DNA from: a phage | Sequence record: PX907400.1 | Reading direction: 5' to 3' (one strand) | DNA: 43,319 bases | Shown: positions 1 to 43,319 of the stretch, in pieces | Position numbering within the stretch: position 1 is the stretch's first letter | Layout of the letters: the number at the start of each line of letters is the position of its first letter | Notes under the pieces: model-generated | The model's input: the letters and a program-made list of their open reading frames with translations, nothing else | Databases searched by the model: none | Told to the model about the DNA's origin: nothing | Made by a program: the position numbers and the translations under genes

Positions 1-99
1 GGCGGCCCCCGCCGCCTTGGTAAGCCCGTTCAGTTGTGATGTGGTTTTATCGACGCCGGTCGATGATACTCGTACTATCAAGCTAGCGGTATCAGCCAT
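1..99 (-). CDS. tail tape measure protein, first 33 codons (gene continues across the window boundary into 41142..43319)
   Basis: ATG at 99..97 overlaps the stop of the upstream chaperone ORF (ATGGCTGA); the frame is open to position 1 and in frame with the ORF running off the other window end. Confidence 0.5.
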   Translation of the reverse strand, partial: MADTASLIVRVSSTGVDKTTSQLNGLTKAAGAA

Positions 100-3467: not shown

Positions 3468-4632
3468 ATGCGTAGGTGATACGCTGGATAACAATAGACG
3501 ACTGATACTGATTGCCAGTAGCCTGGCCTTCGATGGACTGAGTGATTGACTCAGGCCCGCCAATCTCAGGTGTAACCGCGGTAAGTTCTGCACGTTTCAA
3601 GCTGAAAGACATAGCCCCGTTTACCCCCGCCAGAATAGAGTTAATCTCTACCTGCTGCTCGTTGATAAACTTCTGAATCATAGCCATGTCGTACAGCTTA
3701 CCGGAGATGGAGAAGGTGTTAGCCGCGCGGCTACGCTCCACAAACGCCACGTTAGTGTTGCCGAGTTCGAACTGTGCGGACGCGCTGTTGTCGTTGGTGA
3801 TGGTCAGGCTGTCGCAACGCAACGGCGTAGAACCGTCGAACACAGAAACATCGACCGAGGAGAACGGCTCGTCACCAAACGTAACAGAGGAGAAATCAGA
3901 ACCAGACGGCTGCGTGGTGAGAATCTCCTGACTGCGACCGATGAACGGGAAGCTGCCAGTTACCATAGCGTTAACAGCCTGTTCGATGGTAAAACCAGAA
4001 ACTTCCACGCCTTTGGTTAGTGTGTACGCGTCAGTCCCGCCGCACTGGCCTTTGTACCAGGTGAGAATAGAGAACGTCTTGCACTGGCTTCCCGTTTCCA
4101 GTTTATCCCCTGTCTTAGCGGCGGTAGTTACTGTCTCTGTGGTCAGGGTATGCTGGATACCCGCCCCGGTCACTACCAGTGCCTCTACTGCAGTTACGAT
4201 AAACGGTTTTGCGTTGTCACCGGTTAAGTCGGTAAACGCAATCAGGTCGCCCACTTCAACGCCGTCAGAAATAAAGCTACCTTCGGCACGGGTAAAGGTC
4301 TTGCCGGCAGGCGCGACGGTAATTGATAGCCTGGTCAGAGAACTACCGGATTGCCATGTAGAGCCTAAAGCACCCGCCAGCCAGTCGTCCTGGCTTTTCG
4401 AGCTAAGCTCAATAGCGTATTCTCCGCTAACCTGCTTGTTACCGGTGCGGATTGACGTAGTTTCACGGCTGCCGTCCAGTTCGTTGGAGGTCAGCGTGTC
4501 GCGAGTAATAGCAGGAACGCCACCTGTGTTACGCAACGGCGACCAGACAGGGTTGTCTGGTGTTACGCCCGGGACAGTCTCCGCCACATAGAATTGCGCG
4601 GTAGTCGCGCCCTTAAAAGGAGTTGTAGCCAT
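3466..4632 (-). CDS. major tail protein (tail tube), putative
   Basis: Position after neck genes and before the tail chaperones; ATG 4632 with AAGAGG Shine-Dalgarno (track gives GTG at 4638). Confidence 0.55.
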   Translation of the reverse strand: MATTPFKGATTAQFYVAETVPGVTPDNPVWSPLRNTGGVPAITRDTLTSNELDGSRETTSIRTGNKQVSGEYAIELSSKSQDDWLAGALGSTWQSGSSLTRLSITVAPAGKTFTRAEGSFISDGVEVGDLIAFTDLTGDNAKPFIVTAVEALVVTGAGIQHTLTTETVTTAAKTGDKLETGSQCKTFSILTWYKGQCGGTDAYTLTKGVEVSGFTIEQAVNAMVTGSFPFIGRSQEILTTQPSGSDFSSVTFGDEPFSSVDVSVFDGSTPLRCDSLTITNDNSASAQFELGNTNVAFVERSRAANTFSISGKLYDMAMIQKFINEQQVEINSILAGVNGAMSFSLKRAELTAVTPEIGGPESITQSIEGQATGNQYQSSIVIQRITYA

Positions 4633-4634
4633 AT

Positions 4635-5051
4635 TCACAGCCTCTTGGTGAATGCAATAAAGTTAATTGACAATGGTCGTTTGGCCCATCCGTTTTCTAC
4701 AATCAGCGGCCCCAGGCTAACCGATTGAACCTCGGCGCAGATGTCGTTACGAGAAAATGACTTACCTGCTTTGAATGCCGTGTTAAGTAAGTCTGCCATT
4801 TTATTGATTGGCGCGCTACCTTTCACCGATGCGTAGTTAATGTCGACCTGATAAACACCCGCGCGTTGTTCCGTGAAGAACAAATCTGCTTGCTCGGTAT
4901 CCGCCAGTAACATGTAACTTGCCAGATATGGCGTATCGGTTGACGTCGGCGCGTCGATGTTTTCAAGCGCGACATTGATGCCGTTGGCGGTTCCGAAGGC
5001 TACCAGCGGAACATCGAACGCTTTTGTTAAGTCCTCAAAGTAGCCCATCAT
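4635..5051 (-). CDS. tail completion/terminator-like protein, putative
   Basis: 138 aa ORF in the neck region, overlapping its neighbours. Confidence 0.4.
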   Translation of the reverse strand: MMGYFEDLTKAFDVPLVAFGTANGINVALENIDAPTSTDTPYLASYMLLADTEQADLFFTEQRAGVYQVDINYASVKGSAPINKMADLLNTAFKAGKSFSRNDICAEVQSVSLGPLIVENGWAKRPLSINFIAFTKRL

Positions 5052-5443
5052 TTCACCTTGTTGGCTTCTTCGTTAATGAGTTGCTGGAAGCGGGACACAT
5101 TAGTCCTGACAACCCCGGCGGGGGCCTGTTGCGACCAGCCATACTCCAGCCGTTGTGCATACGGCAGATTATTTGTCAGCGTGAACTCGCGCCAGTCTGT
5201 AGCTTTAAGCACGAAACTTGTAGCGTTTCCGGTTGCCGTGTTTCCTGATTTATCCGTAGCGTCTGTAATTCCGGAAGCGGGAGTGCCGCCAGACGCCATC
5301 CAGTTCATACGAAAGCGACCTGTATCTACCGGACTTGCCTTTATGATAGCGGAAAACAGTTTGATAGACACCTGACGCATCACCTTCTCGGGGTTCTTCT
5401 TCGCCTTTTCCACGAACTTAGAGACATCAAGCGCGAAACTCAT
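5048..5443 (-). CDS. HK97 gp10-like head-tail joining protein, putative
   Basis: PVDTGRFR motif recalled from the gp10 family; position in the neck module. Confidence 0.45.
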   Translation of the reverse strand: MSFALDVSKFVEKAKKNPEKVMRQVSIKLFSAIIKASPVDTGRFRMNWMASGGTPASGITDATDKSGNTATGNATSFVLKATDWREFTLTNNLPYAQRLEYGWSQQAPAGVVRTNVSRFQQLINEEANKVK

Positions 5444-5799
5444 TTTCTCACCTGAATAAAATACGCCACGACATCATCGTTAACCATCTTCTTCTCGATA
5501 GCTACGACAGACCATTGCTCGCCGCCGAATTGTACCTTGTCTTCCATTTTTGGCACGACACTGCAATCCGCTTTAACAACCATGTCTCCCGCCTGAATGG
5601 TTGTGCCGTTAACCAAGCCCGAGTTAACCGGAACGGGTACGGCTTTCAGCGGCAGCACTTCATCATCTGACCAGATGTATTCGCCGAGAACTTCATCCCA
5701 CACTTTCGAGCCAGCGCGAACCAGAGATACCGTGCTGCCGAATTTGGCTAGCAGGCGTGTACCCACGCCCTGCATACGTTTACTAAAGGCGGTGCTCAT
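5440..5799 (-). CDS. head-tail connector protein, putative
   Basis: ATG 5799 with GGAGG Shine-Dalgarno (the track ORF extends to 5853 without one). Confidence 0.4.
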   Translation of the reverse strand: MSTAFSKRMQGVGTRLLAKFGSTVSLVRAGSKVWDEVLGEYIWSDDEVLPLKAVPVPVNSGLVNGTTIQAGDMVVKADCSVVPKMEDKVQFGGEQWSVVAIEKKMVNDDVVAYFIQVRK

Positions 5800-6413
5800 T
5801 ACGCGGCCTCCAGTCTCGAGATAACCAGTAATGTCGAAGGTGCTGTACCCCATGCGGTCACTGTTGCGGCCTGCGGATATACGCCGCCGAAGTTTGTCCC
5901 AGCGCTGTCTCGCATAATCTGAACGTCAAATGTTTGTCCGGAGGTTGGGTTAATAACTACACGGGATTCAATAGGGATGGTAGTTTCCGCGCTAACCAGT
6001 TTCGTAGCTGCCGGCGAGCCGTACTGAGCGCCGTTTACCAGAATGCGTGACGACAAGATAGACGTGCCGCTGGCTCCGGTTCTCCCAGCCTGTAGCTTAA
6101 TGCGAACGGCATAGTTGCCCGCGGTATTGAAAGTTACCAGACCCGCGGCATTAATCATGACAGGGTCAGAGGCACTACCCTGCGCTGCACCGAAGGTTAG
6201 TTGCAACGCGGTATCGACCGCGGACGGAGCCTGAACGACAGTAGATGCCGCACGTAGCACCTCAACCTCTTTCGCGCCAGGGTTGGCATAAATAGGCGAG
6301 TCAGCCATTTTAGTGAGAACACCGCGTAACTTCTCAGGGGTGATTAGCCCGGTTGTGTTATCCGGCAATTCAGACCCGATTAGCGTAAATATCTCTGTTT
6401 TAGTCTTCGCCAT
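5799..6413 (-). CDS. hypothetical virion protein
   Basis: 204 aa ORF in the late operon. Confidence 0.4.
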   Translation of the reverse strand: MAKTKTEIFTLIGSELPDNTTGLITPEKLRGVLTKMADSPIYANPGAKEVEVLRAASTVVQAPSAVDTALQLTFGAAQGSASDPVMINAAGLVTFNTAGNYAVRIKLQAGRTGASGTSILSSRILVNGAQYGSPAATKLVSAETTIPIESRVVINPTSGQTFDVQIMRDSAGTNFGGVYPQAATVTAWGTAPSTLLVISRLEAA

Positions 6414-31683: not shown

Positions 31684-32609
31684 ACTATTACAATGAATGG
31701 GATAAAGGCGCAGCCGCGTGGCTGCGTGAGTTGATAAAACAGGGACACATACCTTTTGGAGTTGTAGATGAAAGAAGCATTACCGAAGTTAAGCCAGAAG
31801 ACCTTGACGGGTTCACCCAGTGTCATTTTTTCGCGGGTATCGGCGGCTGGCCTCTCGCGCTCAGACTTGCGGGAGTTTCGGAGGATACGCCTCTCTGGAC
31901 GGGAAGCCCGCCTTGCCAACCGTTTAGCACGGCAGGAAAACAACTCGGACAGTTCGACCCGAGACACCTCGCGCCGGTCTTCCTCGACCTCATCAGCGAG
32001 TGCCGCCCTCCAGTCATCTTTGGGGAGCAGGTTGCGGCAGCAATTGCAAAATCGTGGATGTGCGATTTACAAGCTCACCTGGAAGGAGAAGACTACGCCG
32101 TCGGGTTTGCTGTACTCCCAGCTTGTAGCGTCGGCGCACCGCACAAAAGAGAACGACTCTTCTTTGGCGCGCACAGACTGGCCCACACCGGCGGTATCAC
32201 TGATAACAAACGACGTGAACATGCGCAGCACAGACGGCAGGACGAAACCGAACAAACTGGGATGGGCCGCTGCGATGGCGGCTTGGCCTACTCCGACAGC
32301 GAACGACTACAGGGGGAGCGGAGAGACAGTGATTCGCAAGGACGGGAAGGACAGGACATTCGACAGGCTGGACTACTCGACGGAGCAGGGTCTGAAAATA
32401 ACACAACCAATCCGCATCACGGCTTCTGGTCAGATACTGACTGGCTCGGATGCCGGGATGGAAAATTCAGGCCAGTTGAACCCGGCGCATTCCCGCTGGC
32501 TAATGGGATACCCGCCAGAGTGGGACGATTGCGCGGTTATGGCAATGCCATCGTCCCGCAAGTAGCCGCTGAATTTATAAAGGCATTCATGGGGGCGGTA
32601 AATGAGTAA
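31680..32609 (+). CDS. DNA (cytosine-5) methyltransferase, apparently frame-disrupted
   Basis: Frame 0 has motifs FFAGIGG, PCQPFS, GEQV, HKRERLFFG and C-terminal YGNAIVPQV; the overlapping +1 ORF 31768..32565 has WPTP repeats and LNPAHSRWLMGYPPEW. Confidence 0.6.
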   Translation: MNYYNEWDKGAAAWLRELIKQGHIPFGVVDERSITEVKPEDLDGFTQCHFFAGIGGWPLALRLAGVSEDTPLWTGSPPCQPFSTAGKQLGQFDPRHLAPVFLDLISECRPPVIFGEQVAAAIAKSWMCDLQAHLEGEDYAVGFAVLPACSVGAPHKRERLFFGAHRLAHTGGITDNKRREHAQHRRQDETEQTGMGRCDGGLAYSDSERLQGERRDSDSQGREGQDIRQAGLLDGAGSENNTTNPHHGFWSDTDWLGCRDGKFRPVEPGAFPLANGIPARVGRLRGYGNAIVPQVAAEFIKAFMGAVNE

Positions 32610-34026
32610 GTTTCAAAGGCGCGAATACCAGAAGCTCATGACTTCGTTCATGCTGCGGCACCATCGCTGCAATATCTGGGCGAGCATGGGCAGCGGTAAG
32701 TCGGGGTCAACGTTGTGGGTTCTCAATCGACTGTTCCGTAATGGGCAACTTAATGACGACGACCGAGTGTTAATTCTGGCTCCTTTACGTGTTGCGTCCG
32801 GTACGTGGCCCGCAGAACAGGCACGTTGGAACTTCCCCTGTCTGAGTGTCGTAGACGCAACCGGTTCAGAGAAGCGCCGTATCGCGGCGCTGGAGTCAGA
32901 TGCTAACGTGGTGTGCACAAACTACGAAGTTATCGAGTGGCTTATTGACTACTACGGCAAAGACGACTGGCCTTTCACAGTTATCGTTGCCGATGAGAGC
33001 ACGAAGCTGAAATCGTTCCGTAGCCGTTCTGGGGGTAGCAAGCGGGCAAAGGCGCTTAGCAAGGTAGCATTCGGTAAGGTTAAGCGTTTTATCAACCTGA
33101 CCGGTACACCGTCGCCTAACGGACTTAAGGACCTGTGGGGGCAGAACTGGTTTATAGACGCGGGCGAGCGCCTCGGTTCTTCGTATACAGCGTTCACCGA
33201 CCGCTGGTTCAACTCTGTACAGAAAGGCAAATCGGCGATGGCGCGTGAGTATCACGCCCGCCCGGGTGCGGATACCGAGATTCATCAGAAGATGAAGGAC
33301 ATTAGTCTCACGATTGACGCTGCCGAGTGGTTCGGTTGCGAAGCGCCGATTATCGTACCGGTTGAAATAGACCTGCCGAAGAAAGCACGCCAGGCGTACA
33401 TCGATATGGAGGAGAAGTTATTCGCGGAACTGGAGAGCGGGGAAGTAGAAGCGGCTAACGCCGCAGCGAAGACGTCAAAGTGTTTGCAGATTGCATCCGG
33501 CGCCGTATATGTGTCAGGGCCGGACGGTGAGGCAACGAAAGACTGGGAGAAAGTGCACGACACGAAACTGGATGCGCTGGAGTCAATTGTTGAGGAGTTG
33601 CAGGGTGCGCCGTTACTAGTCGCCTATCAGTTCAAGCACGAACTGGAGCGCATCCTCAAGCGCTTCCCGCAGGCGCAGGCTTTTGCAAAAGGCGCGAAGG
33701 GCAATAAGCAGATGGAAGCGTGGAACCGCGGCGAAATCGAGATTTTGTGCGTCCACCCTGCGTCAGCCGGTCATGGTTTGAATTTACAGGACGGCGGACA
33801 CCATCTGGCGTTCATCTCGCAAGGCTGGAACCTTGAACACTATTTGCAGGTTGTCGAGCGTATAGGCCCTGTCCGCCAGAAACAGGCAGGTCATGAGCGC
33901 CCGGTGTTCCTCTATCACATCGTTGCAAAAGACACGCTGGACGAGGTTGTTGCCGCGCGTACTGACGAGAAGAAATCCGTCCAGGAAGAGTTGCTTAACT
34001 ACATGAAGAGACGAGGTAAGAAATGA
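32602..34026 (+). CDS. SNF2-family (DEAD/DEAH-like) helicase
   Basis: GSGKS P-loop, VIVADEST box, C-terminal helicase motifs (HGLNLQ...QVVERIGPVRQ). Confidence 0.7.
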   Translation: MSKFQRREYQKLMTSFMLRHHRCNIWASMGSGKSGSTLWVLNRLFRNGQLNDDDRVLILAPLRVASGTWPAEQARWNFPCLSVVDATGSEKRRIAALESDANVVCTNYEVIEWLIDYYGKDDWPFTVIVADESTKLKSFRSRSGGSKRAKALSKVAFGKVKRFINLTGTPSPNGLKDLWGQNWFIDAGERLGSSYTAFTDRWFNSVQKGKSAMAREYHARPGADTEIHQKMKDISLTIDAAEWFGCEAPIIVPVEIDLPKKARQAYIDMEEKLFAELESGEVEAANAAAKTSKCLQIASGAVYVSGPDGEATKDWEKVHDTKLDALESIVEELQGAPLLVAYQFKHELERILKRFPQAQAFAKGAKGNKQMEAWNRGEIEILCVHPASAGHGLNLQDGGHHLAFISQGWNLEHYLQVVERIGPVRQKQAGHERPVFLYHIVAKDTLDEVVAARTDEKKSVQEELLNYMKRRGKK

Positions 34027-34228: not shown

Positions 34229-34257
34229 AAAAGGCCCCGTTTGGGGCCTTAGTTTTC
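34229..34257. terminator. bidirectional rho-independent terminator
   Basis: AAGGCCCC-GTTT-GGGGCCTT with T-runs on both strands; overlaps the tailspike stop. Confidence 0.6.
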
Positions 34258-37209
34258 TTTATCTTCTAGTGCTGCCAGCCTCTTCTCGAACTCGCGCATC
34301 TTCTTACGCTGATAGGCAATCTCTATGAAGAACATCTGGTCCGCCCTAACTCCCCATCTGCCGCCGGGAGGGGATACTTGTACAGTCTGGCCATCTTCAT
34401 CAATATCATACGCAGCTTCAATTGAGTCGTAGCACAAGAAAGCATATTTACAACTGGTAGAATCTTTCTCCATAAGCCCATGGTTGACCAAGATGTCTCG
34501 CACATCTTGGGCTATCACACCGAAGTGTATCCTTGCAGTGTCACCCTTGATTGCTAGGCTTTCAAGCCACTTAAAAGATATTACATGTATATCTTCCCAT
34601 GCGGTAAGGAGTTGTCCCTCAATTTCCTCTTTGTTCGTCTTAAGTGTACCATCAGACGTGTTTATCGTACCGGTGGTCGCGTACACCGTAGTCCACCTAT
34701 TAACTGCCGAACCTAAAGACACTCGCGAGTCTAAGTAAGGAAGGAAATTGTTGTATGAGTAGAAGCCTCCTGACGCATACATAATAGCCCTGTTAGGCTT
34801 TGCATGGTTTGCCCCGTACAGTTGCAGCAACGCACCATCGGAACGGGATGCACCATCACCACCGCTAACTATCAGTCTTTGAGCCGATGGGGTTTTAGTG
34901 GGGACTGTTTTTGAAATCAGCCCGTAATCACCATCAAACCGTGCGCGCACGGCAGACTGTTGTGTACCATCGTATTCCAGCCCCGTTACATGCAGGGAGT
35001 ACACGCTTACATCATTGTCAAACGTTAAAGGTGCTTCTACATGGCGTACACCATCTACCCCCATGGCGACAGGTATTGTACGGTTAGGAGTTGCTCCGTA
35101 TTTGAAATCACGTGATACGTACGGGTGGTCTTCAATCTTTATCCGGTAGCTATATAAGTCAGCCGGATGCCCATCATGTTTGTACCATAACCTCGCACTG
35201 TTATCCCCTATGCTCCAGGGAGAGAAGAAGTCTTCCCCACCAAAGATATAGTACAACCAGCCATCTTTAACACAGACCGAGCCGACGCCGACAGCAGAGT
35301 TAACGATATGACCCTGGTATATTTGGTCGGTAATATTAAACCACTGAACATCATCTAAAGATGAAGGCCAGGACGACACATTAACTTTGCACATAAAGGT
35401 CCTCGGATACGAACCTTCATAGCGGCTGTCCTGCTCGCCACCTTCCCACTCACCAAAGGCACGTTCTGTACCAAAGATGTAGAGATAGTCACCTACTTTA
35501 GCGAACGGAAGATTGGAGTGATGTACATTGTTCGGAAATCGCAAGTAGCTCCAGTTTTGCCCAGAATCGGTGCTCATCGCCAGTGTAGAGCCAGGGGAAG
35601 TGGGTAATGTGCCGCGTGTGGTAAGGTATAACACACCACCATAACTTTTCACACACGGCTCAGAAGCGTTATCAGCGTATGCCTGAGCGACAGTGCGACG
35701 AACGAATACGCCAGGATTGTCATACACGTTACTAAAATACAAGACACCGAGACGCCTAGGGGACACATCGCCGTTGTGATAGCCGACAGCGATAGTGTAG
35801 TTAACATCATCTATAGCCGCAAAACTATGTGTCTCCGTGACACACAAATCAGCGTTAGGGGAGTATGCTACCCCAGGCAATTCGGTAATTTCCCACGGGC
35901 TGTCCCAGAATCGCGTTGCGAAGTTCCAGGTAACACCCGCATTGTTTATGGTGGAACTCGCCGGGCTTGAGAGCGTAACAGTGAACGTATTTCGGTTAAT
36001 TATAGACGAAACCGTCATATTACCCGATACGCCAGTTGCCGATGTATTAGAGAAGTTAACCGCATCTCCTGCTTTTAGGCCATGATTTTCTATGACAATG
36101 GTAGCAGTAGTGGAGCCAGAACTAATAGTTATTCCGCCGGTTGGGTGTCTAAAATACGGCATTGGGCGTGACCAAAGTTCTGCCTTCTTCATCCGCATAT
36201 TAGATAAGTAGCGGGTTTCTATAACTGCATATAATCGGTTGCCGCACGTACCCATGCTCATGCAGTGGTAGTTAACTCTGTCCGTAGGAACACTAGCATT
36301 ATAGTCAGCATGGATTGGAGTCAACCACTCAGGCATTGACCAAGTCTGCCCGTCGTCTCCAGAGCGAACCCAAGCTACATGTAAGTTTTGAACACCATGT
36401 CGTTCGCCCGCCATAAACGGGGCGTAAATAACATGGTCGTAGACGAAAGTTTTATCCTGCGTCCATGCGTTGTAGAACGGGGCATCCGTCACCTTAGTTA
36501 GTGAGCCGTTAAAGAAGCCATCAGCTACATAAGTAAGCGGTTGCCCGGCTACGCGCTCGTAAACGAATGCAGCATTCTTAAATTTACTAATGTCAGGTAA
36601 TTGGGAAACTTTATAAGTCAAACCCCTGCCGTCTATAATCCAATTGTTGGGGGAAGCTGCTAATACATTAAAAATAGATTGAGTATCATCAGTTACGCCG
36701 TCACCCACGGCGCCCCATGCGCGCGGGTCGTATTCGTCCTTCCATCGCGCCACATGTAAATCTGGGTACAGAATTGCACCGTTTACATCAGATATTTGCT
36801 GCCGCAGTATGACCGACCCGACAGGCTGCCACGCCCCATCTGCCACGCCACCGGTGGACTGCGGAGAAGATGACGCCGGGATAATTTTTGGTAGAGCACC
36901 CAACCAATAGTACCAATCCCCGTCACCGCCAGAGGACGACGGCCACAAAACTGCGGTGTTTCGGTCGTTAGCGGATAGTGTACCGCCTGACGTGAAATCA
37001 AAATCTGCCAGTTTAAAACCAGCATCACGCAACACGGCAGGTAACGTCTTCTGGGTCTGTCCAGTAACCTGATTTGTCGCGTAATCAATATCGGCACCAC
37101 CGGCGACACCGCCGGATTTGCCAGTGATAACCTCGGCCTCGAAAATCTGATGTTTCTTGGCGGTTTGTAAATCCGCCAGGCTTAAAACGTCACCGCATCC
37201 GCTTGACAT
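34249..37209 (-). CDS. tailspike with sialidase-like Asp-box beta-propeller and C-terminal intramolecular chaperone (peptidase S74-like)
   Basis: Asp-boxes SGDDGQTWS and STDSGQNWS; C-terminal SDGTLK cleavage-type motif and chaperone-like tail; AGAGGA Shine-Dalgarno. Confidence 0.7.
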   Translation of the reverse strand: MSSGCGDVLSLADLQTAKKHQIFEAEVITGKSGGVAGGADIDYATNQVTGQTQKTLPAVLRDAGFKLADFDFTSGGTLSANDRNTAVLWPSSSGGDGDWYYWLGALPKIIPASSSPQSTGGVADGAWQPVGSVILRQQISDVNGAILYPDLHVARWKDEYDPRAWGAVGDGVTDDTQSIFNVLAASPNNWIIDGRGLTYKVSQLPDISKFKNAAFVYERVAGQPLTYVADGFFNGSLTKVTDAPFYNAWTQDKTFVYDHVIYAPFMAGERHGVQNLHVAWVRSGDDGQTWSMPEWLTPIHADYNASVPTDRVNYHCMSMGTCGNRLYAVIETRYLSNMRMKKAELWSRPMPYFRHPTGGITISSGSTTATIVIENHGLKAGDAVNFSNTSATGVSGNMTVSSIINRNTFTVTLSSPASSTINNAGVTWNFATRFWDSPWEITELPGVAYSPNADLCVTETHSFAAIDDVNYTIAVGYHNGDVSPRRLGVLYFSNVYDNPGVFVRRTVAQAYADNASEPCVKSYGGVLYLTTRGTLPTSPGSTLAMSTDSGQNWSYLRFPNNVHHSNLPFAKVGDYLYIFGTERAFGEWEGGEQDSRYEGSYPRTFMCKVNVSSWPSSLDDVQWFNITDQIYQGHIVNSAVGVGSVCVKDGWLYYIFGGEDFFSPWSIGDNSARLWYKHDGHPADLYSYRIKIEDHPYVSRDFKYGATPNRTIPVAMGVDGVRHVEAPLTFDNDVSVYSLHVTGLEYDGTQQSAVRARFDGDYGLISKTVPTKTPSAQRLIVSGGDGASRSDGALLQLYGANHAKPNRAIMYASGGFYSYNNFLPYLDSRVSLGSAVNRWTTVYATTGTINTSDGTLKTNKEEIEGQLLTAWEDIHVISFKWLESLAIKGDTARIHFGVIAQDVRDILVNHGLMEKDSTSCKYAFLCYDSIEAAYDIDEDGQTVQVSPPGGRWGVRADQMFFIEIAYQRKKMREFEKRLAALEDKEN

Positions 37210-37221
37210 ATAGAGTCCTCT

Positions 37222-39777
37222 TTAATTAAAACCATTGCTGAATCCGTCGGAGAAACCGCTGCCGTATGGCGCGACGCCGTCGTATTTGTAGAATCCGTCG
37301 TCATAGTTGTAGCCAGTAATCTTGACCGTGCGGTCGTCGCCAGGGTCGATTGAAGAAACAACTATCTTCTGAGCATTATGCCTTGCTTCGTTGCCGAATG
37401 AAAACTCAGTTTTTAGTGCGCTATTCCCCGTGTAGATTGCTTCTTCCGGCGCGGAGAGCATAATCACTTCGCGGTCGTGGCTTCCTTTGATAACGGAGAT
37501 ACTCTGTACAGAGCCATCGCGCTTCTTGAGGATGATGGAGTGGTCATCACCCGGAGTAAACGTAACCGGCTGTGACAGTGTCAGCGTAAGCCCATTAACG
37601 GCAGCAACATAGCCGTCCTGTGGCGCAATACGCGAGCCTTTAACTACGCTGATTACACCGCCTGGAGTAGCGAGCGCACCTTCTTCGGTAGCTTCAAACT
37701 CTACGACAACTTTACTTAACGCATTGCGCTGATAGCGACGCCACGCCAGCCAATACGCCTGCTGATAGTTACGTACGCCCTTCGATTCGTATTCCTCTGT
37801 ATTTGCCCCGAGTTCTTCCGGGATGTAAATCGTTTCCCGTACGTTAGTATCCGGGTCGATGTATGAGAACGACAGGCTATCGTAGGTTGTCGAATCGTTG
37901 AACGTGCGGGTCCATTTCTCGGTACCGGTAGTTTTGCTGCGGTGGGTGAACACCATTTCAGGCCCCGCGACAGGACGGTCGAATCGCAGCATAATATCCG
38001 CACCTTTACGGTACGCAGTACAGAAAACGGCTTCCGCTATGGTCTGGACGATGTCCTGCATGGTTGTGTCATAGTCGTCGAACGTGTAGCAGAATTGCCC
38101 TGCTAATTCACTTCCGAAATAGGACTCAATTTCTTCCTGCACAGCAAGTAACTTGTCCATGTTTGCCGTTGTCAGTTCCAGATTGCCTACTGCGGGGTCG
38201 CGCGCCAGTCGAATTAGAGATTGTACGGCTTGCGTGTTCGGTGTCATTACTGTATCGAATACCCCATTGCCGAGGTATTTGTAACACATCTCGGTTGCAA
38301 TCATGCGCAGTTCCGGGTTGTCTATGCTGGCGGCACGCGGCGTCTGTTTACGGGTGCAATGTACGGTAGTTCTGTTGCCGTAGTGTGGAGTGGTGTCCAG
38401 AGACTGCCCATACAGGTTAATGAATGTTATCTCGTCGCTTACCGTACCGTCGTAGTCTTTATCGAAATTAGTTACACGACGCATACGGGCGCGGAAACGG
38501 GATGCGGTCGGCAATTGCCCGTAGATAGACGTACCGACGTAATCCGTATTGTTGCCTGTAATTGTGGCCTGTACCGTGTAAATATCGCTCAACGGGTTAC
38601 GCTGAGAATCAATCATCTGGTACTGGAGTTCCACCGTTACACTGGTGCGGTTATAGCCTCCGTCGTATTTGTAGAGGCCGTTCTGCCCGGCAACGTTAGC
38701 AAGTACCCGGTCAACCTCTCCGCGCACCATGTAATACCAGTCCGTAAGAGATACGTCATAGGTGTTGCTTGGGCCTATAAACGTATCCGAACGCTCTGTA
38801 AGTGCGTAAGTCTCTCCGTTATTAAGGTTGCCCCAGTTACCTATATCCCCGACGTACAACCGAACCTCAAAGTCGTCGACGTATAAAACTTCAAACGAGC
38901 CGTTCAGGTTAGTGACGTCCTTAACGTCGAAATTGCTCAACACTGCGACATCACCAACACTAAGAAACTCAGAAAAAGCAGAGTCGCCTGACGGATCATA
39001 GATGTAGCCAGTGTTTGAAATACGTTTAGCTGTGCCGTCGGCGCTTGGGTTAGCTCCGATGTCGTTTGGCGCTTTCAGCACAATACCGTCAACGTCGTCG
39101 TTGGAGTATGTCACATAGAGTTTCTGGTCAATGACGTCGCCGATTTGTAGTTGCGGAGATGCGGTGTTGTTCGGTGACGTATACGGCGCATATACGGCAA
39201 CAGATGAACCTGTGATGTCGCTTATCAGGGTGTCGCCCTCTGTGACGCCATCAGCCTCAATATGCAGATGTCCGCGCCCTGCGTCATAGTACGAATACTC
39301 CAGCAAAGCACCAGTGGAGTTGAACGCCTTATACGTCTGCATCAGGTCATTAGGGATTGTCTGCACAGTCCCGCAGATGTCATAGGAGCGCTCGTAAGGG
39401 CGTGGTTTGTTTGAGCGGTCTGTGAGGCTGTTATTTGGTGATGTTGTCTGGTTGTTAGTCGCCGTGTAGTTGGCGTTGGCGGCCGTGTTCAGGCCAAACA
39501 ACTTGGCGATTGGCTTAAGGATAAAACCAAACACCTTACTAACCGCACCGAGCGCCCCGCTACCCGCACCCTCAATAATGTGGTACACAGCGTCTTCATC
39601 TTTAAGCGCGTCGAAGTCGTCGGTGACATCAGTATCATCGCCAATCTCGCCCAGGTAGACGCGCACCGGCACGCCGTCCTGGATACGGTTAACGACAAAC
39701 TCCATCGGCATCCCGACGTGTTTTGTACGGTCAAAAGCGCCATCAGCGTTTCGCGTGTAGTGCAGGATTATCGCCAA
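37222..39777 (-). CDS. tail tip / host specificity protein (gpJ-like)
   Basis: 851 aa ORF after the NlpC/P60 gene in lambda-like order; TTG start with GGAG Shine-Dalgarno. Confidence 0.5.
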   Translation of the reverse strand: MAIILHYTRNADGAFDRTKHVGMPMEFVVNRIQDGVPVRVYLGEIGDDTDVTDDFDALKDEDAVYHIIEGAGSGALGAVSKVFGFILKPIAKLFGLNTAANANYTATNNQTTSPNNSLTDRSNKPRPYERSYDICGTVQTIPNDLMQTYKAFNSTGALLEYSYYDAGRGHLHIEADGVTEGDTLISDITGSSVAVYAPYTSPNNTASPQLQIGDVIDQKLYVTYSNDDVDGIVLKAPNDIGANPSADGTAKRISNTGYIYDPSGDSAFSEFLSVGDVAVLSNFDVKDVTNLNGSFEVLYVDDFEVRLYVGDIGNWGNLNNGETYALTERSDTFIGPSNTYDVSLTDWYYMVRGEVDRVLANVAGQNGLYKYDGGYNRTSVTVELQYQMIDSQRNPLSDIYTVQATITGNNTDYVGTSIYGQLPTASRFRARMRRVTNFDKDYDGTVSDEITFINLYGQSLDTTPHYGNRTTVHCTRKQTPRAASIDNPELRMIATEMCYKYLGNGVFDTVMTPNTQAVQSLIRLARDPAVGNLELTTANMDKLLAVQEEIESYFGSELAGQFCYTFDDYDTTMQDIVQTIAEAVFCTAYRKGADIMLRFDRPVAGPEMVFTHRSKTTGTEKWTRTFNDSTTYDSLSFSYIDPDTNVRETIYIPEELGANTEEYESKGVRNYQQAYWLAWRRYQRNALSKVVVEFEATEEGALATPGGVISVVKGSRIAPQDGYVAAVNGLTLTLSQPVTFTPGDDHSIILKKRDGSVQSISVIKGSHDREVIMLSAPEEAIYTGNSALKTEFSFGNEARHNAQKIVVSSIDPGDDRTVKITGYNYDDGFYKYDGVAPYGSGFSDGFSNGFN

Positions 39778-40133
39778 AATTCAATCTCCGTGTACGTGTC
39801 TCTGAGGTCCGCCAGCCTGTCAAGCCGTACCTGACGGGAAGCAAGCTCGCAATGGCTAACCATCCCGTCGAAGTATACTCCTGCATGCCACACGATACGA
39901 CCACCACGGCGATACCCCATAAGCACCGCACAGAAGTTTTCAGGCTTATCAATTTTTGTAAGCCCCTTCGTGTTGCGATGCCCTTCGTCAAACGCGTCGT
40001 TAATTGCCGTTGGGCTTGTAACATCGAAAGCCGGGGTTTCTAACCCGGCGTCCGCACGTACAATGCGCACGTGATGCCAGCAATTGCGTTTGCGAAAGTC
40101 GTAAGGTATTCCCGTGTAGTCGTTAATATTCAT
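39768..40133 (-). CDS. NlpC/P60-like tail assembly protein (gpK-like)
   Basis: Catalytic-type NCWHH and WHAGVY motifs. Confidence 0.5.
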   Translation of the reverse strand: MNINDYTGIPYDFRKRNCWHHVRIVRADAGLETPAFDVTSPTAINDAFDEGHRNTKGLTKIDKPENFCAVLMGYRRGGRIVWHAGVYFDGMVSHCELASRQVRLDRLADLRDTYTEIEFWR

Positions 40134-40645
40134 GTGGTCAACAGGCCGCGTAATAACGGTATCTCTTTAGGTGTCATCAGTATACCAGTGCTTCGTTGGT
40201 TCAGCATAGGCGTACCAACATCCGCAGAGAACTCGCCTTTCTCCTGGTTAATGGCCTGCAACTCGTACACGACAGGACCGTCAGCGGGATAAGACAGGTC
40301 GGTGCTGACATAACGGCGGAAGACGAACTTCGGCAACTCGGTGTTACTCATCGGGATTTTATCCATCTCATCATCCAGTTGATTGAGAATATCCGGTAAA
40401 GTAAACGAGGTCGTCTGGTCCATATCACTGTTGTTAGCGGCACCCGACGCCTCCATCGGGGTAGGTTCGAACGTGATTGTTTCGCCCGTCTCCAGTGTTG
40501 CCGTAAGTTCCTGCAGCCCGCGCACAAGATAGTACGTCTTCGATAGCAACGGGTGACTGATTTGCAACGTGATGTAGTCCATCTCGCCGTCGGGATTTGA
40601 GGCCAGCTTACGGCGATAGGCTGCTTCTACTGATTCCTGACTCAT
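40130..40645 (-). CDS. minor tail protein
   Basis: ATG 40645 overlaps the upstream stop (track gives TTG at 40660). Confidence 0.45.
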   Translation of the reverse strand: MSQESVEAAYRRKLASNPDGEMDYITLQISHPLLSKTYYLVRGLQELTATLETGETITFEPTPMEASGAANNSDMDQTTSFTLPDILNQLDDEMDKIPMSNTELPKFVFRRYVSTDLSYPADGPVVYELQAINQEKGEFSADVGTPMLNQRSTGILMTPKEIPLLRGLLTT

Positions 40646-41142
40646 TGCATCGGGTCCCAAATTCGTGGAAACGTTGATTGTGCAGTTCCGTAGGCTTTAA
40701 GGAAACACCCCAGCCCGTCACCATAGCAACCGTACAAATCTGGCAGATTGTTAATCAGGCACTGGTTCTCAAGGTCCTGGAACGGCGATTTCTCGGCGGT
40801 TGCCGTGAAGGTGATTGTCCAGTTAATCCCGTCTTCGGTGGACTCGGCGATAGTGGACGTAATGGTTACCTGATAATCTTCGATGCCCATGCCGAAGTCG
40901 TGCGCCATCCAGAAACTTGACGCACCGCCGTCTACTTTTTCGAGGAACGACAGAAACGCCTGTCGCCCCATTGCGGATGTAATCAGGGTTACGCTAACAG
41001 GGAACACGTCGTAATACGTGTCACGGCCCTGACGCACCCCGCCACCGGCTAAATCTACACTCCAGACGTTGTTACGTCTGGTCATTGAGTAGCCTTTCGA
41101 TACAATTGGCTTAAGGCTACGTGGGAAATATAAGTCGCTCAT
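40642..41142 (-). CDS. minor tail protein
   Basis: 166 aa immediately after the tape measure gene. Confidence 0.45.
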   Translation of the reverse strand: MSDLYFPRSLKPIVSKGYSMTRRNNVWSVDLAGGGVRQGRDTYYDVFPVSVTLITSAMGRQAFLSFLEKVDGGASSFWMAHDFGMGIEDYQVTITSTIAESTEDGINWTITFTATAEKSPFQDLENQCLINNLPDLYGCYGDGLGCFLKAYGTAQSTFPRIWDPMQ

Positions 41143-43319
41143 TATTTAAACCCCGGCGCATTTCTTGTGGCTTTGCGGGCCTTGCTAATCTTGCTGTTGC
41201 TGTTCTGCAAAGAGGCAGCCACCTGCTCCTCGATGATGATTCGCAAACGGCCTTCATCATCTTGCTCAGTGGATACGTTGCCGATTTGAGAACTCGTGTT
41301 GTTTACGATAGTAACATTAGACGGGCCGGAAGAAGACCCGTTTTGCCCCATAATTTCTTTCATCTGCTGTGCTGTGCGAACACGAGATGCGCCAGCCGGC
41401 ATAATAACTTCTGGTTTACCGCGTTCTGCGATGGTGGAAGCCTGCCCTGCGGATAACTGTCCGCCCTGTTCACGCGCGGACCGGATAGCGGAAACCTGCG
41501 CCATACCTGCACCAACGGCAGCGGCAGCGGCTACAGGGGCCAGGAACGGGCCAACTACAGGGATAGCTGCCGTTGACTTGTACGCCTCAATAGCTGCGGT
41601 GTACGTGGCGATAGTGGCCTGTACGATAGCGAATGCCTTGTACGCGCCAGAAGCCTCACCCAACGCAGACCCGATGTTTGAGGCCATGTTACCAAAGGCC
41701 GTTGCCGTTGCATCGGCACGTTTGGTTGCGTATTGCTCGTTGATGGCGTTAAGAGCGGCCTGATACTGCTTCTCGCTAATCAAACCCTGCTCGCGGTACT
41801 TATCCGCTACCGCCAGTTTCTGCTGTTCCTGGATGTCGAGAAGCTCAAGCTCAGTAGCGTTCTGACCCATAATCTGAGCCATGAAGTCGTCGCCTTTCTG
41901 CTGCTTTTCCTGGGCTTCTTTCTGGCGTTTATCCAGTTCATCTTGTCGTTTTTGCCCGGCTTCGAGGACGATAGCTGTTTTAGCCTGTTCGTATTCTTTC
42001 AGCGACAGCGCGCCCTGGCTGTAGAACTCTTTTGCCTTAGCCAGTTTCTGCTGTTCCTGCGCGTCGATAGCCTTTAACTCATCGTTGTTCTGGCGAGCCA
42101 AAGTGTCGAGGTAATCCTGCGCCTGATTCCGCAATTGTTCTGCTTTCTTGGCGGCGGCTTTTGCTGCTTTATCGTCGGTGTTTCCTGCCCCGCCAGTTCC
42201 GCCCTTTTTATTAACAAGACTGGCTAAGTCAATTTCTTGCTTCTTGCGCTCGTCGTACTGCTTGCGCTGTTCCTCAATTTCTTTCTTACGCTGCTTAGAC
42301 CTGTTGGTAATGGCCTGTGATTCTGCCTCTGCGCGTTTTATGCTAGCGGCGTACGCGGCGTCGGCCTCTGCGGTCAGGTTTTTAAATGTTAGCGCCGCCG
42401 TTTTGCTCGGGTCAAACACGTCGGCAAGGGTCTGCCCTAACGCTACAGCGTAATCGTCGATGCGCTGGAACCACGCAATAACCTCGTGAAATGTCTGCTG
42501 GATGTCCGGCAACCACTCACGGATGGCATCCGGTATAGTCCCCAGCGAGTCAGACATATCAACGGATTTGTCCTCGGTATCGAATGCCAGGTCATTCAGG
42601 GCGTCAGAAATAAACTTGAACGATTCATTGAACAGTGTCACCCAATCCTGGAGCGTGGCGGCTATCTCATTAGACGCGATGGCGTCGGTAAGCGCCGTGA
42701 TAGCGTCTTCCGCTGTGGCCGCTTGCTCACCTACGGCGTCGCCAAAACCAGACTGCGCCACCGCAAGAACAAGACCGTCGAAGGAGTCGGCGAGGCTCGA
42801 TAACTGGCCGTCTAGCGTCTTAGAGCGCGTCTCCATCGCCCCGGCAAAATCGGTGTTGCCGATATTCAGGAGGTATTTCTGAATCTCTTCGGAGTTCTTC
42901 TTAACCGTGGTCGTTACGCCGCGGAACGTGAACGAAACTGTATCTGCCTGTTGCGACGACTTGATGCCGAACTCTTTTAAGCGCTCAAATTCAAATGTAC
43001 TGGCGTCGGCAACTGCCTCAATCATCTGATTAAGGTCTTTACCCATAGCCGCCGCGGTGTTGCCGTAGGAGATTAACGCCTCTTTGCTGGGGTTCAGACC
43101 GAGCGCAACGAGCTTGGTAAACCCCTCTACCGCCTGATTGAGACCGTACGGGGTCTCTTTTGCAAACTGTTGCAGGACGCTGAAAGCCTTAGCCGCGTTC
43201 TCGGCGCTCCCGGTCATCGTGATGAGGCCGGAGTTCAGCTTATCGAAGTTTCGCTGGGAATCCACCAGCGCGCTGAACACCTGCTTAGCGGTTTCCAGAC
43301 TGACAACGGCGGCGGCGGC
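41142..43319 (-). CDS. tail tape measure protein, C-terminal ~725 codons (5' end lies at 1..99)
   Basis: Long Ala/Gln/Lys-rich helical protein upstream of the minor tail genes; frame stays open past the track start 43280 to the window end. Confidence 0.7.
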   Translation of the reverse strand, partial: AAAAVVSLETAKQVFSALVDSQRNFDKLNSGLITMTGSAENAAKAFSVLQQFAKETPYGLNQAVEGFTKLVALGLNPSKEALISYGNTAAAMGKDLNQMIEAVADASTFEFERLKEFGIKSSQQADTVSFTFRGVTTTVKKNSEEIQKYLLNIGNTDFAGAMETRSKTLDGQLSSLADSFDGLVLAVAQSGFGDAVGEQAATAEDAITALTDAIASNEIAATLQDWVTLFNESFKFISDALNDLAFDTEDKSVDMSDSLGTIPDAIREWLPDIQQTFHEVIAWFQRIDDYAVALGQTLADVFDPSKTAALTFKNLTAEADAAYAASIKRAEAESQAITNRSKQRKKEIEEQRKQYDERKKQEIDLASLVNKKGGTGGAGNTDDKAAKAAAKKAEQLRNQAQDYLDTLARQNNDELKAIDAQEQQKLAKAKEFYSQGALSLKEYEQAKTAIVLEAGQKRQDELDKRQKEAQEKQQKGDDFMAQIMGQNATELELLDIQEQQKLAVADKYREQGLISEKQYQAALNAINEQYATKRADATATAFGNMASNIGSALGEASGAYKAFAIVQATIATYTAAIEAYKSTAAIPVVGPFLAPVAAAAAVGAGMAQVSAIRSAREQGGQLSAGQASTIAERGKPEVIMPAGASRVRTAQQMKEIMGQNGSSSGPSNVTIVNNTSSQIGNVSTEQDDEGRLRIIIEEQVAASLQNSNSKISKARKATRNAPGFK

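Follow-up and report, generated by a model that had tools for sequence, protein, structure and literature searches.

Sequence analysis points to a K1-capsule-specific endosialidase tailspike in the Kagunavirus genome PX907400.1

The phage sequence PX907400.1 (43,319 nucleotides (nt), hereafter the window) carries at positions 34249..37209 a gene that almost certainly encodes the tailspike of a K1G/63D-type Kagunavirus siphophage, an endo-N-acetylneuraminidase (endo-alpha-2,8-sialidase) specific for the K1 capsule. The domains of the protein, the conservation of its functional residues and its near-identity to known enzymes were established in the present analysis, while capsule removal and location at the tail tip are taken from the literature on its orthologues. 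From these we infer a trimeric state, cleavage of this protein, its copy number, its site of attachment and the role of the J-like tail protein encoded next to it. The tailspike is an ordinary member of its family rather than a new one, and the enzyme has already been described, since the gene shares 95-99% nt identity with known K1 endosialidase genes.

The initial annotation of this DNA, made without database searches, had proposed a tailspike in which a sialidase-like propeller with two Asp-boxes is joined to a self-cleaving chaperone, and had predicted a capsule depolymerase. The region is indeed a single open reading frame (ORF) of 986 amino acids (aa) plus stop codon, with an ATG start preceded 7 nt upstream by a Shine-Dalgarno-like AAAGAGGA; it lies on the minus strand, a detail left unstated at the time. 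A plus-strand reading of the same interval was ruled out, as its frames are riddled with stops. The motifs quoted in that annotation were all found in the translation, namely SGDDGQTWS at aa 283-291 (window 36337-36363; the strict box SGDDGQTW at aa 283-290, 36340-36363), STDSGQNWS at aa 546-554 (window 35548-35574; the strict box STDSGQNW at aa 546-553, 35551-35574) and SDGTLK at aa 852-857 (window 34639-34656). Counted from SDGTLK, the C-terminal part comprises 135 aa, close to the ~130 aa originally suggested. When the tailspike protein was shuffled, two or more strict S-x-D-x-G-x-x-W boxes appeared in just 2 of 20,000 shuffles. In an alignment of six endosialidases (the tailspike, K1G, 63D, the phi92-like ESCO5, K1F and K1E), Asp-box 1 is invariant and Asp-box 2 is invariant at its S, D, G and W positions.

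Pfam matches were judged against the curated cutoffs, and all six Pfam domains of the tailspike exceed them (Table 1). Peptidase_S74, described as 'chaperone of endosialidase', reached 48.8 bits, with the cutoff at 22. The best match among solved structures in the PDB was 4HIZ ("Endosialidase"; E=0, aa 166-851), which we take to be the phi92 endosialidase (gp143). The K1F endoNF structures 1V0E and 3GVL also matched (E about 1e-228; 1.6e-227 for 1V0E), as did the endoNF stalk-plus-chaperone construct 3GW6 over aa 758-984 (E 1.6e-56; about 1e-55 to 1e-57) and two other S74 structures, 3gud (E 1.9e-11) and 4uw8 (E 9e-8). The K1F-type endosialidases belong to CAZy family GH58. On its sequence the propeller belongs to the six-bladed type, its solved homologues being ~50-78% identical, and the beta-barrel insert and stalk domains of endosialidases are both present at the domain level by Pfam. 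The beta-barrel is a polysialic acid binding site in K1F (K1F mutational scan). A generic Asp-box exo-sialidase or BNR-repeat protein was considered and rejected, because the strong Pfam matches are all to endosialidase-specific families. The proposed sialidase-like propeller is borne out by these families (PF12217, with PF12218, PF12195 and PF12219) and by 4HIZ, and the proposed self-cleaving chaperone is likewise predicted by PF13884, by 3GW6 and by the conserved Ser-Lys dyad and stalk Arg treated below.

Megablast searches of the phage collection returned 21 records with at least 80% coverage of the gene and 95-99% nt identity. The gene is 99.1% identical in nt to that of Escherichia phage L AB-2017, a Smith and Huggins K1 phage, 98.9% to the K1G gene annotated 'tailspike 63D sialidase', 97.3% to that of K1H, 96.2% to the endo-N-acetylneuraminidase gene of phage 63D (AB015437) and 95.7% to that of JSSK01. 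These K1G, K1H, L AB-2017, JSSK01 and 63D genes are orthologues that align gap-free along all 2961 nt at 95-99% nt identity and have the same domain order, and the K1G-type tailspikes occupy the same slot, 3' of the J-like tail protein gene and convergent with a helicase gene. At the protein level, identity is 99% to K1G, 97% to 63D, 74% to ESCO5, 50% to K1F and 47% to K1E, and reaches 97.4% over the catalytic part of JSSK01 ORF40. Immunogold labelling has placed JSSK01 ORF40 at the distal end of the tail, and the purified protein strips the capsule from K1 E. coli. In the Smith and Huggins paper, as in the BASEL paper, the K1G-type endosialidase is regarded as the determinant of K1 specificity. 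It is through these orthologues, the 63D enzyme and JSSK01 ORF40, that the probable internal cleavage of alpha-2,8-polysialic acid by the tailspike is supported. The capsule depolymerase of the initial annotation can thus be narrowed, by analogy, to one predicted to act specifically on K1 polysialic acid, given an identity of 96-99% to the 63D, K1G and JSSK01 enzymes and the capsule removal by the last of these. The initial annotation had missed that the protein is one of a family that others had characterised before.

We mapped the K1F residue numbering onto the tailspike through the six-sequence alignment, and compared K1G-type alleles in a set of 11 (the window allele and ten relatives). 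K1F H350, R549, E581, R596 and R647, given as key catalytic or substrate-binding residues in the K1F deep mutational scan (PMC12632334), correspond to H271, R485, E517, R532 and R583 and are invariant in the six endosialidases and in the 11 alleles. Equally invariant in both sets are S852 and K857, equivalent to the K1F dyad S911/K916, and R838, equivalent to K1F R897; in K1F, autoproteolysis is carried out by the Ser-Lys dyad of S911 and K916 and also needs the stalk residue R897 (PMC8326128). The engineered S911A position of 3GW6 aligns with S852, and its K916 with K857. The mature 4HIZ chain stops at ...TGTINT, which matches aa 846-851 directly before SDGTLK and is consistent with cleavage at the predicted scissile bond Thr851-Ser852. 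The predicted products of the 108.4 kDa precursor are a mature subunit of 851 aa (93.0 kDa) and a chaperone of 135 aa (15.4 kDa). The S74 domains of the T5 L-shaped fibre (4UW8), GA-1 gp12 (3GUD) and the eukaryotic MyRF have PF13884, the S-x4-K dyad and a C-terminal helical region in common with the tailspike, but their cargo consists of fibres or a transcription factor unrelated in the N-terminal part; a cargo of sialidase propeller and stalk occurs only in endosialidases.

K1F endoNF and the tailspike share the N-terminal extension, the six-bladed propeller with barrel insert, the stalk, the self-cleaving chaperone and the two Asp-boxes. Their identity is 50% overall and 37% in the stalk, and K1F has an extra T7-gp17-like N-terminal capsid-binding region of ~80 aa which the tailspike lacks. 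The residues R789 and L794 of the tailspike align with K1F S848 and Q853. K1F R837, S848 and Q853 are candidate residues of the stalk polysialic acid site; a literature search for them returned nothing relevant, and none of the three is named in the K1F scan paper. The type represented by 4HIZ and ESCO5 provides the closest solved structure: ESCO5 is 74% identical in aa over the full length and 82% in the propeller, and the catalytic residues are all shared. In contrast, the N-terminal anchor of ESCO5 is unrelated (17% identity) because the ESCO5 enzyme attaches to a myophage baseplate, and the ESCO5-type chaperone domain has ~30 extra inserted residues. In tblastn searches, the catalytic part was 77-78% identical to the enzymes of ESCO5, nepoznato and ECO340P2, and 49-52% to those of K1F and K1E. 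With 4HIZ as the top PDB match, the catalytic part is thus nearer to phi92-like myophage enzymes than to K1F or K1E, and for phi92 gp143 a bifunctional activity has been reported, with hydrolysis of both alpha-2,8 and alpha-2,9 linkages. The tailspike might accordingly also degrade the K92-type polysialic acid with alternating alpha-2,8/alpha-2,9 linkages and give its phage a wider host range. We consider this unlikely: the 22% divergence from the phi92 type suffices to alter specificity, the K1G-type phages are described as K1-dependent, and the JSSK01 ENgase agglutinates K1-type strains only.

The anchor module (aa 1-165) is 100% identical in aa to that of K1G. The N-terminus (about aa 1-135 to 1-161) is also 74% identical to that of the 711-aa tailspike of vB_Eco_K-01 (4001-6136), which lies in the same genomic slot and has no sialidase domains; identity is nearly complete over the first 60 aa, and similarity is lost after ~aa 140. 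Several other Kagunavirus records match the first 393 nt of the tailspike gene only. Kagunavirus tailspikes therefore exchange their enzymatic bodies while the anchor stays constant, and comparison of the sequences puts the swap junction near aa 131-140. A weak match was found between aa 52-142 and the N-terminus of the Sf11 tailspike gp13 (9occ_G, E 9e-6). In the Sf11 cryo-EM structure, six tailspike trimers sit on the ring of the distal tail protein, to whose adaptor helix they are joined by their N-terminal helices. The gene in the distal-tail-protein position measures 1419 nt in vB_Eco_K-01 and 501 nt in the window.

From the above, the K1 endosialidase may be expected to work as follows. 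The tailspike would be synthesised as a 986-aa precursor, of which the 135-aa C-terminal chaperone would promote trimerisation and folding of the stalk. Ser852 and Lys857 would then cut the Thr851-Ser852 bond, so that the chaperone is self-removed and a stable subunit of 851 aa (93 kDa) remains. The conserved N-terminal ~135-165 aa would anchor the trimers at the tail tip, in several copies that by analogy with Sf11 are probably arranged around the distal tail ring. The propeller, with H271, R485, E517, R532 and R583, would cut alpha-2,8-polysialic acid internally while the polymer is held by the beta-barrel and the stalk, and the virion would tunnel through the K1 capsule. The J-like tip protein would engage the cell surface next and trigger DNA delivery.

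Several points weigh against this picture. The 63D endosialidase, 97% identical to the tailspike, has been described as a homotetramer and not a trimer (review PMC5380687); by analogy, a trimer is much more likely for the tailspike, because it agrees with the homologous crystal structures and with the trimerisation-dependent mechanism of the chaperone. The 166-aa distal-tail-protein candidate (40642..41142) gave no match in the PDB, even at E<=1 and with Sf11 gp17 included, and the Sf11-like attachment is for this reason proposed as an analogy only. In addition, the BASEL authors depict host recognition by Kagunavirus phages via glycan-targeting tailspikes only. Finally, the allele in the window carries seven private substitutions together with a 2-aa C-terminal extension.

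The private substitutions, defined against the ten K1G-type relatives, are T243A, S308P, T451P, V465A, S789R, Q829R and G836V. The TAA stop codon of all ten relatives is GAA in the window (position 34257), so that the protein gains Glu-Asn and ends at a TAA 6 nt downstream. These changes are the only features peculiar to the window. Nine nt changes count strictly as private singletons. Of these, seven are non-synonymous, made up of six substitutions and the stop change (window positions 34257, 34703, 34724, 34845, 35816, 36288 and 36483); T451P was left out of this count because one relative carries a third residue at that site. A ratio of this kind resembles that of unselected mutation, and the private changes and the read-through of the stop could be taken for assembly or sequencing errors or for mutations from laboratory passage, leaving an altered or impaired allele. 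This seems very improbable to us, as the surplus of non-synonymous changes does not reach significance (Fisher p = 0.08), the catalytic, dyad and Asp-box residues are all spared, the ORF is intact, the C-terminal domain is discarded once folding is done, and the K1F scan found some parts of the stalk and C-terminal domain to be broadly tolerant. Three of the substitutions (S789R, Q829R and G836V) fall in the beta-helix stalk, with S789 aligned to K1F S848, and the K1F deep mutational scan sees in the stalk a 'tuning knob' by which processivity and host discrimination are set. Taken together with the closeness of the catalytic core to the bifunctional phi92 type rather than to K1F, these changes raise the idea of a tuned allele in which the stalk substitutions add positive charge facing the polyanionic polysialic acid, with altered processivity or with an extended host range (K1/K92 or O-acetyl variants) as the consequence. 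We regard such tuning as improbable.

As a K1 endosialidase, the tailspike is another near-identical copy of the enzyme cloned from 63D and present in K1G, K1H, the Smith and Huggins phages and JSSK01. Tailspikes of this kind are of use in phage therapy against the E. coli K1 strains of neonatal meningitis and of the urinary tract, in capsule typing and in the removal of polysialic acid in neurobiology. For annotation, the tailspike fixes both the host (K1-encapsulated E. coli) and the genus (Kagunavirus).

Table 1. Coordinates of the tailspike gene, its domains and neighbouring features in the window, with the basis of each assignment.
Feature	Position	Strand	Basis
Tailspike precursor gene, 986 aa, 108.4 kDa	34249..37209	-	ORF, Pfam, PDB, nt identity
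N-terminal virion-anchor module, aa 1-165	36715..37209	-	Tail_spike_N PF18668, aa 97-131, E 1e-13
Endosialidase N-terminal extension, aa 166-233	36511..36714	-	End_N_terminal PF12218, aa 167-233, E 7.8e-38; 4hiz/1v0e alignments begin at aa 166/167
Catalytic six-bladed beta-propeller, aa 234-693, with both Asp-boxes	35131..36510	-	End_beta_propel PF12217, E 1.2e-221, profile 1-367/367
Beta-barrel propeller insert (lectin-like, polysialic-acid-binding), aa 351-433	35911..36159	-	End_beta_barrel PF12195, E 5.7e-41, profile 1-83/83
Stalk (tail-spike) domain, aa 694-851, ends at Thr851, carries R838	34657..35130	-	End_tail_spike PF12219, E 2.7e-73
C-terminal intramolecular chaperone/autoprotease, aa 852-986, 15.4 kDa, plus stop codon	34249..34656	-	Peptidase_S74 PF13884, aa 852-912
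J-like tail-tip/baseplate-hub protein, 851 aa, TTG start	37222..39777	-	phrog_469, 9occ_E; directly upstream of tailspike
Three small (minor) tail genes	40642..41142, 40130..40660, 39768..40133	-	Tail module
Tape measure	41142..43280 + wrapped part (circularised 41142..43319 + 1..99)	-	Tail module
GC-rich perfect 8-bp hairpin AAGGCCCC-GTTT-GGGGCCTT	34231..34250	.	Terminator scan, sequence, RNA fold

The initial annotation had also pointed to a separate gpJ-like tip protein next to the tailspike and concluded that the receptor-binding apparatus is bipartite. The adjacent ORF exists as described, and it matches phrog_469 ('tail protein') with an E of 2e-252, while its C-terminal 300 aa match the Sf11 baseplate hub 2 (BHUB2, gp14; 9occ_E, E 2.1e-25). 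The corresponding slot in K1G is occupied by ORF26, a 'putative tail protein'. The gpJ-type Pfam matches are both below cutoff (Phage-tail_3, 17.5 bits with a cutoff of 23; FNIII-A_GpJ, 17.1 bits with a cutoff of 27), and we therefore use 'J-like' for position and role and not for membership of a family. The bipartite architecture thus stands, with the neighbour as a tip or hub protein, and a two-component host-recognition apparatus made up of a capsule-degrading spike and a tip protein is plausible; the J-like protein may in addition bind a second receptor. It is possible, if somewhat doubtful, that the tailspike alone makes up the whole receptor-binding apparatus and that its 851-aa neighbour is a structural hub or DNA conduit without receptor specificity. 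Such a view would suit the sub-cutoff gpJ-type matches and also the BASEL paper, where Kagunavirus-type phages ('only glycan-targeting tailspikes') are set against siphophages with a porin-binding central fibre. Homologous hubs are, however, located at the tail tip of Sf11, and R1-core lipopolysaccharide has been proposed as the secondary receptor of other endosialidase-bearing phages. The J-like protein measures 851 aa in the window and in Esher4 and 837 aa in K1G, and 12 nt separate its gene from the start of the tailspike in the window, compared with 54 nt in K1G, which together indicate a C-terminal length polymorphism.

The window represents the entire genome of a Kagunavirus (Guernseyvirinae) in circularly permuted form; 89% of it aligns to K1G, with 93.8% identity. 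Its last and first positions, 43319 and 1, fall at K1G 15760 and 15762, so that the two ends are contiguous in K1G, and the window boundary splits the tape-measure gene, which once circularised codes for a protein of 758 aa (757 aa in K1G) and has its ATG at wrapped position 99. The minus-strand order of tape measure, three minor tail genes, J-like protein and tailspike is the same as in K1G. Compared in full with three relatives, the genome backbone is only ~91-94% identical. The tailspike itself is 98-99% identical to those of K1G, L AB-2017 and Esher4, whereas its flanks (32602..34026 and 37222..43280, with the helicase, J-like and tail genes) reach only 87-96%, and some regions are absent or strongly diverged (window 22-24 kb compared with K1G, 7-9 kb with L AB-2017, and the tape measure with Esher4). 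The genome is thus a mosaic with a conserved host-range cassette. In MirsaeidiM_Esher4 (PQ579973.1, 37213..40173), only 1290 nt of the tailspike are annotated as a coding sequence, yet the DNA carries the full 984-aa ORF intact; the gap lies in the public annotation. The hairpin at 34231..34250 overlaps the tailspike stop codon and separates the convergent tailspike and helicase/replication-gene arms; with a folding energy of -24.4 kcal/mol (z -6.1) and T-runs flanking it on both strands, it is likely a bidirectional intrinsic terminator.

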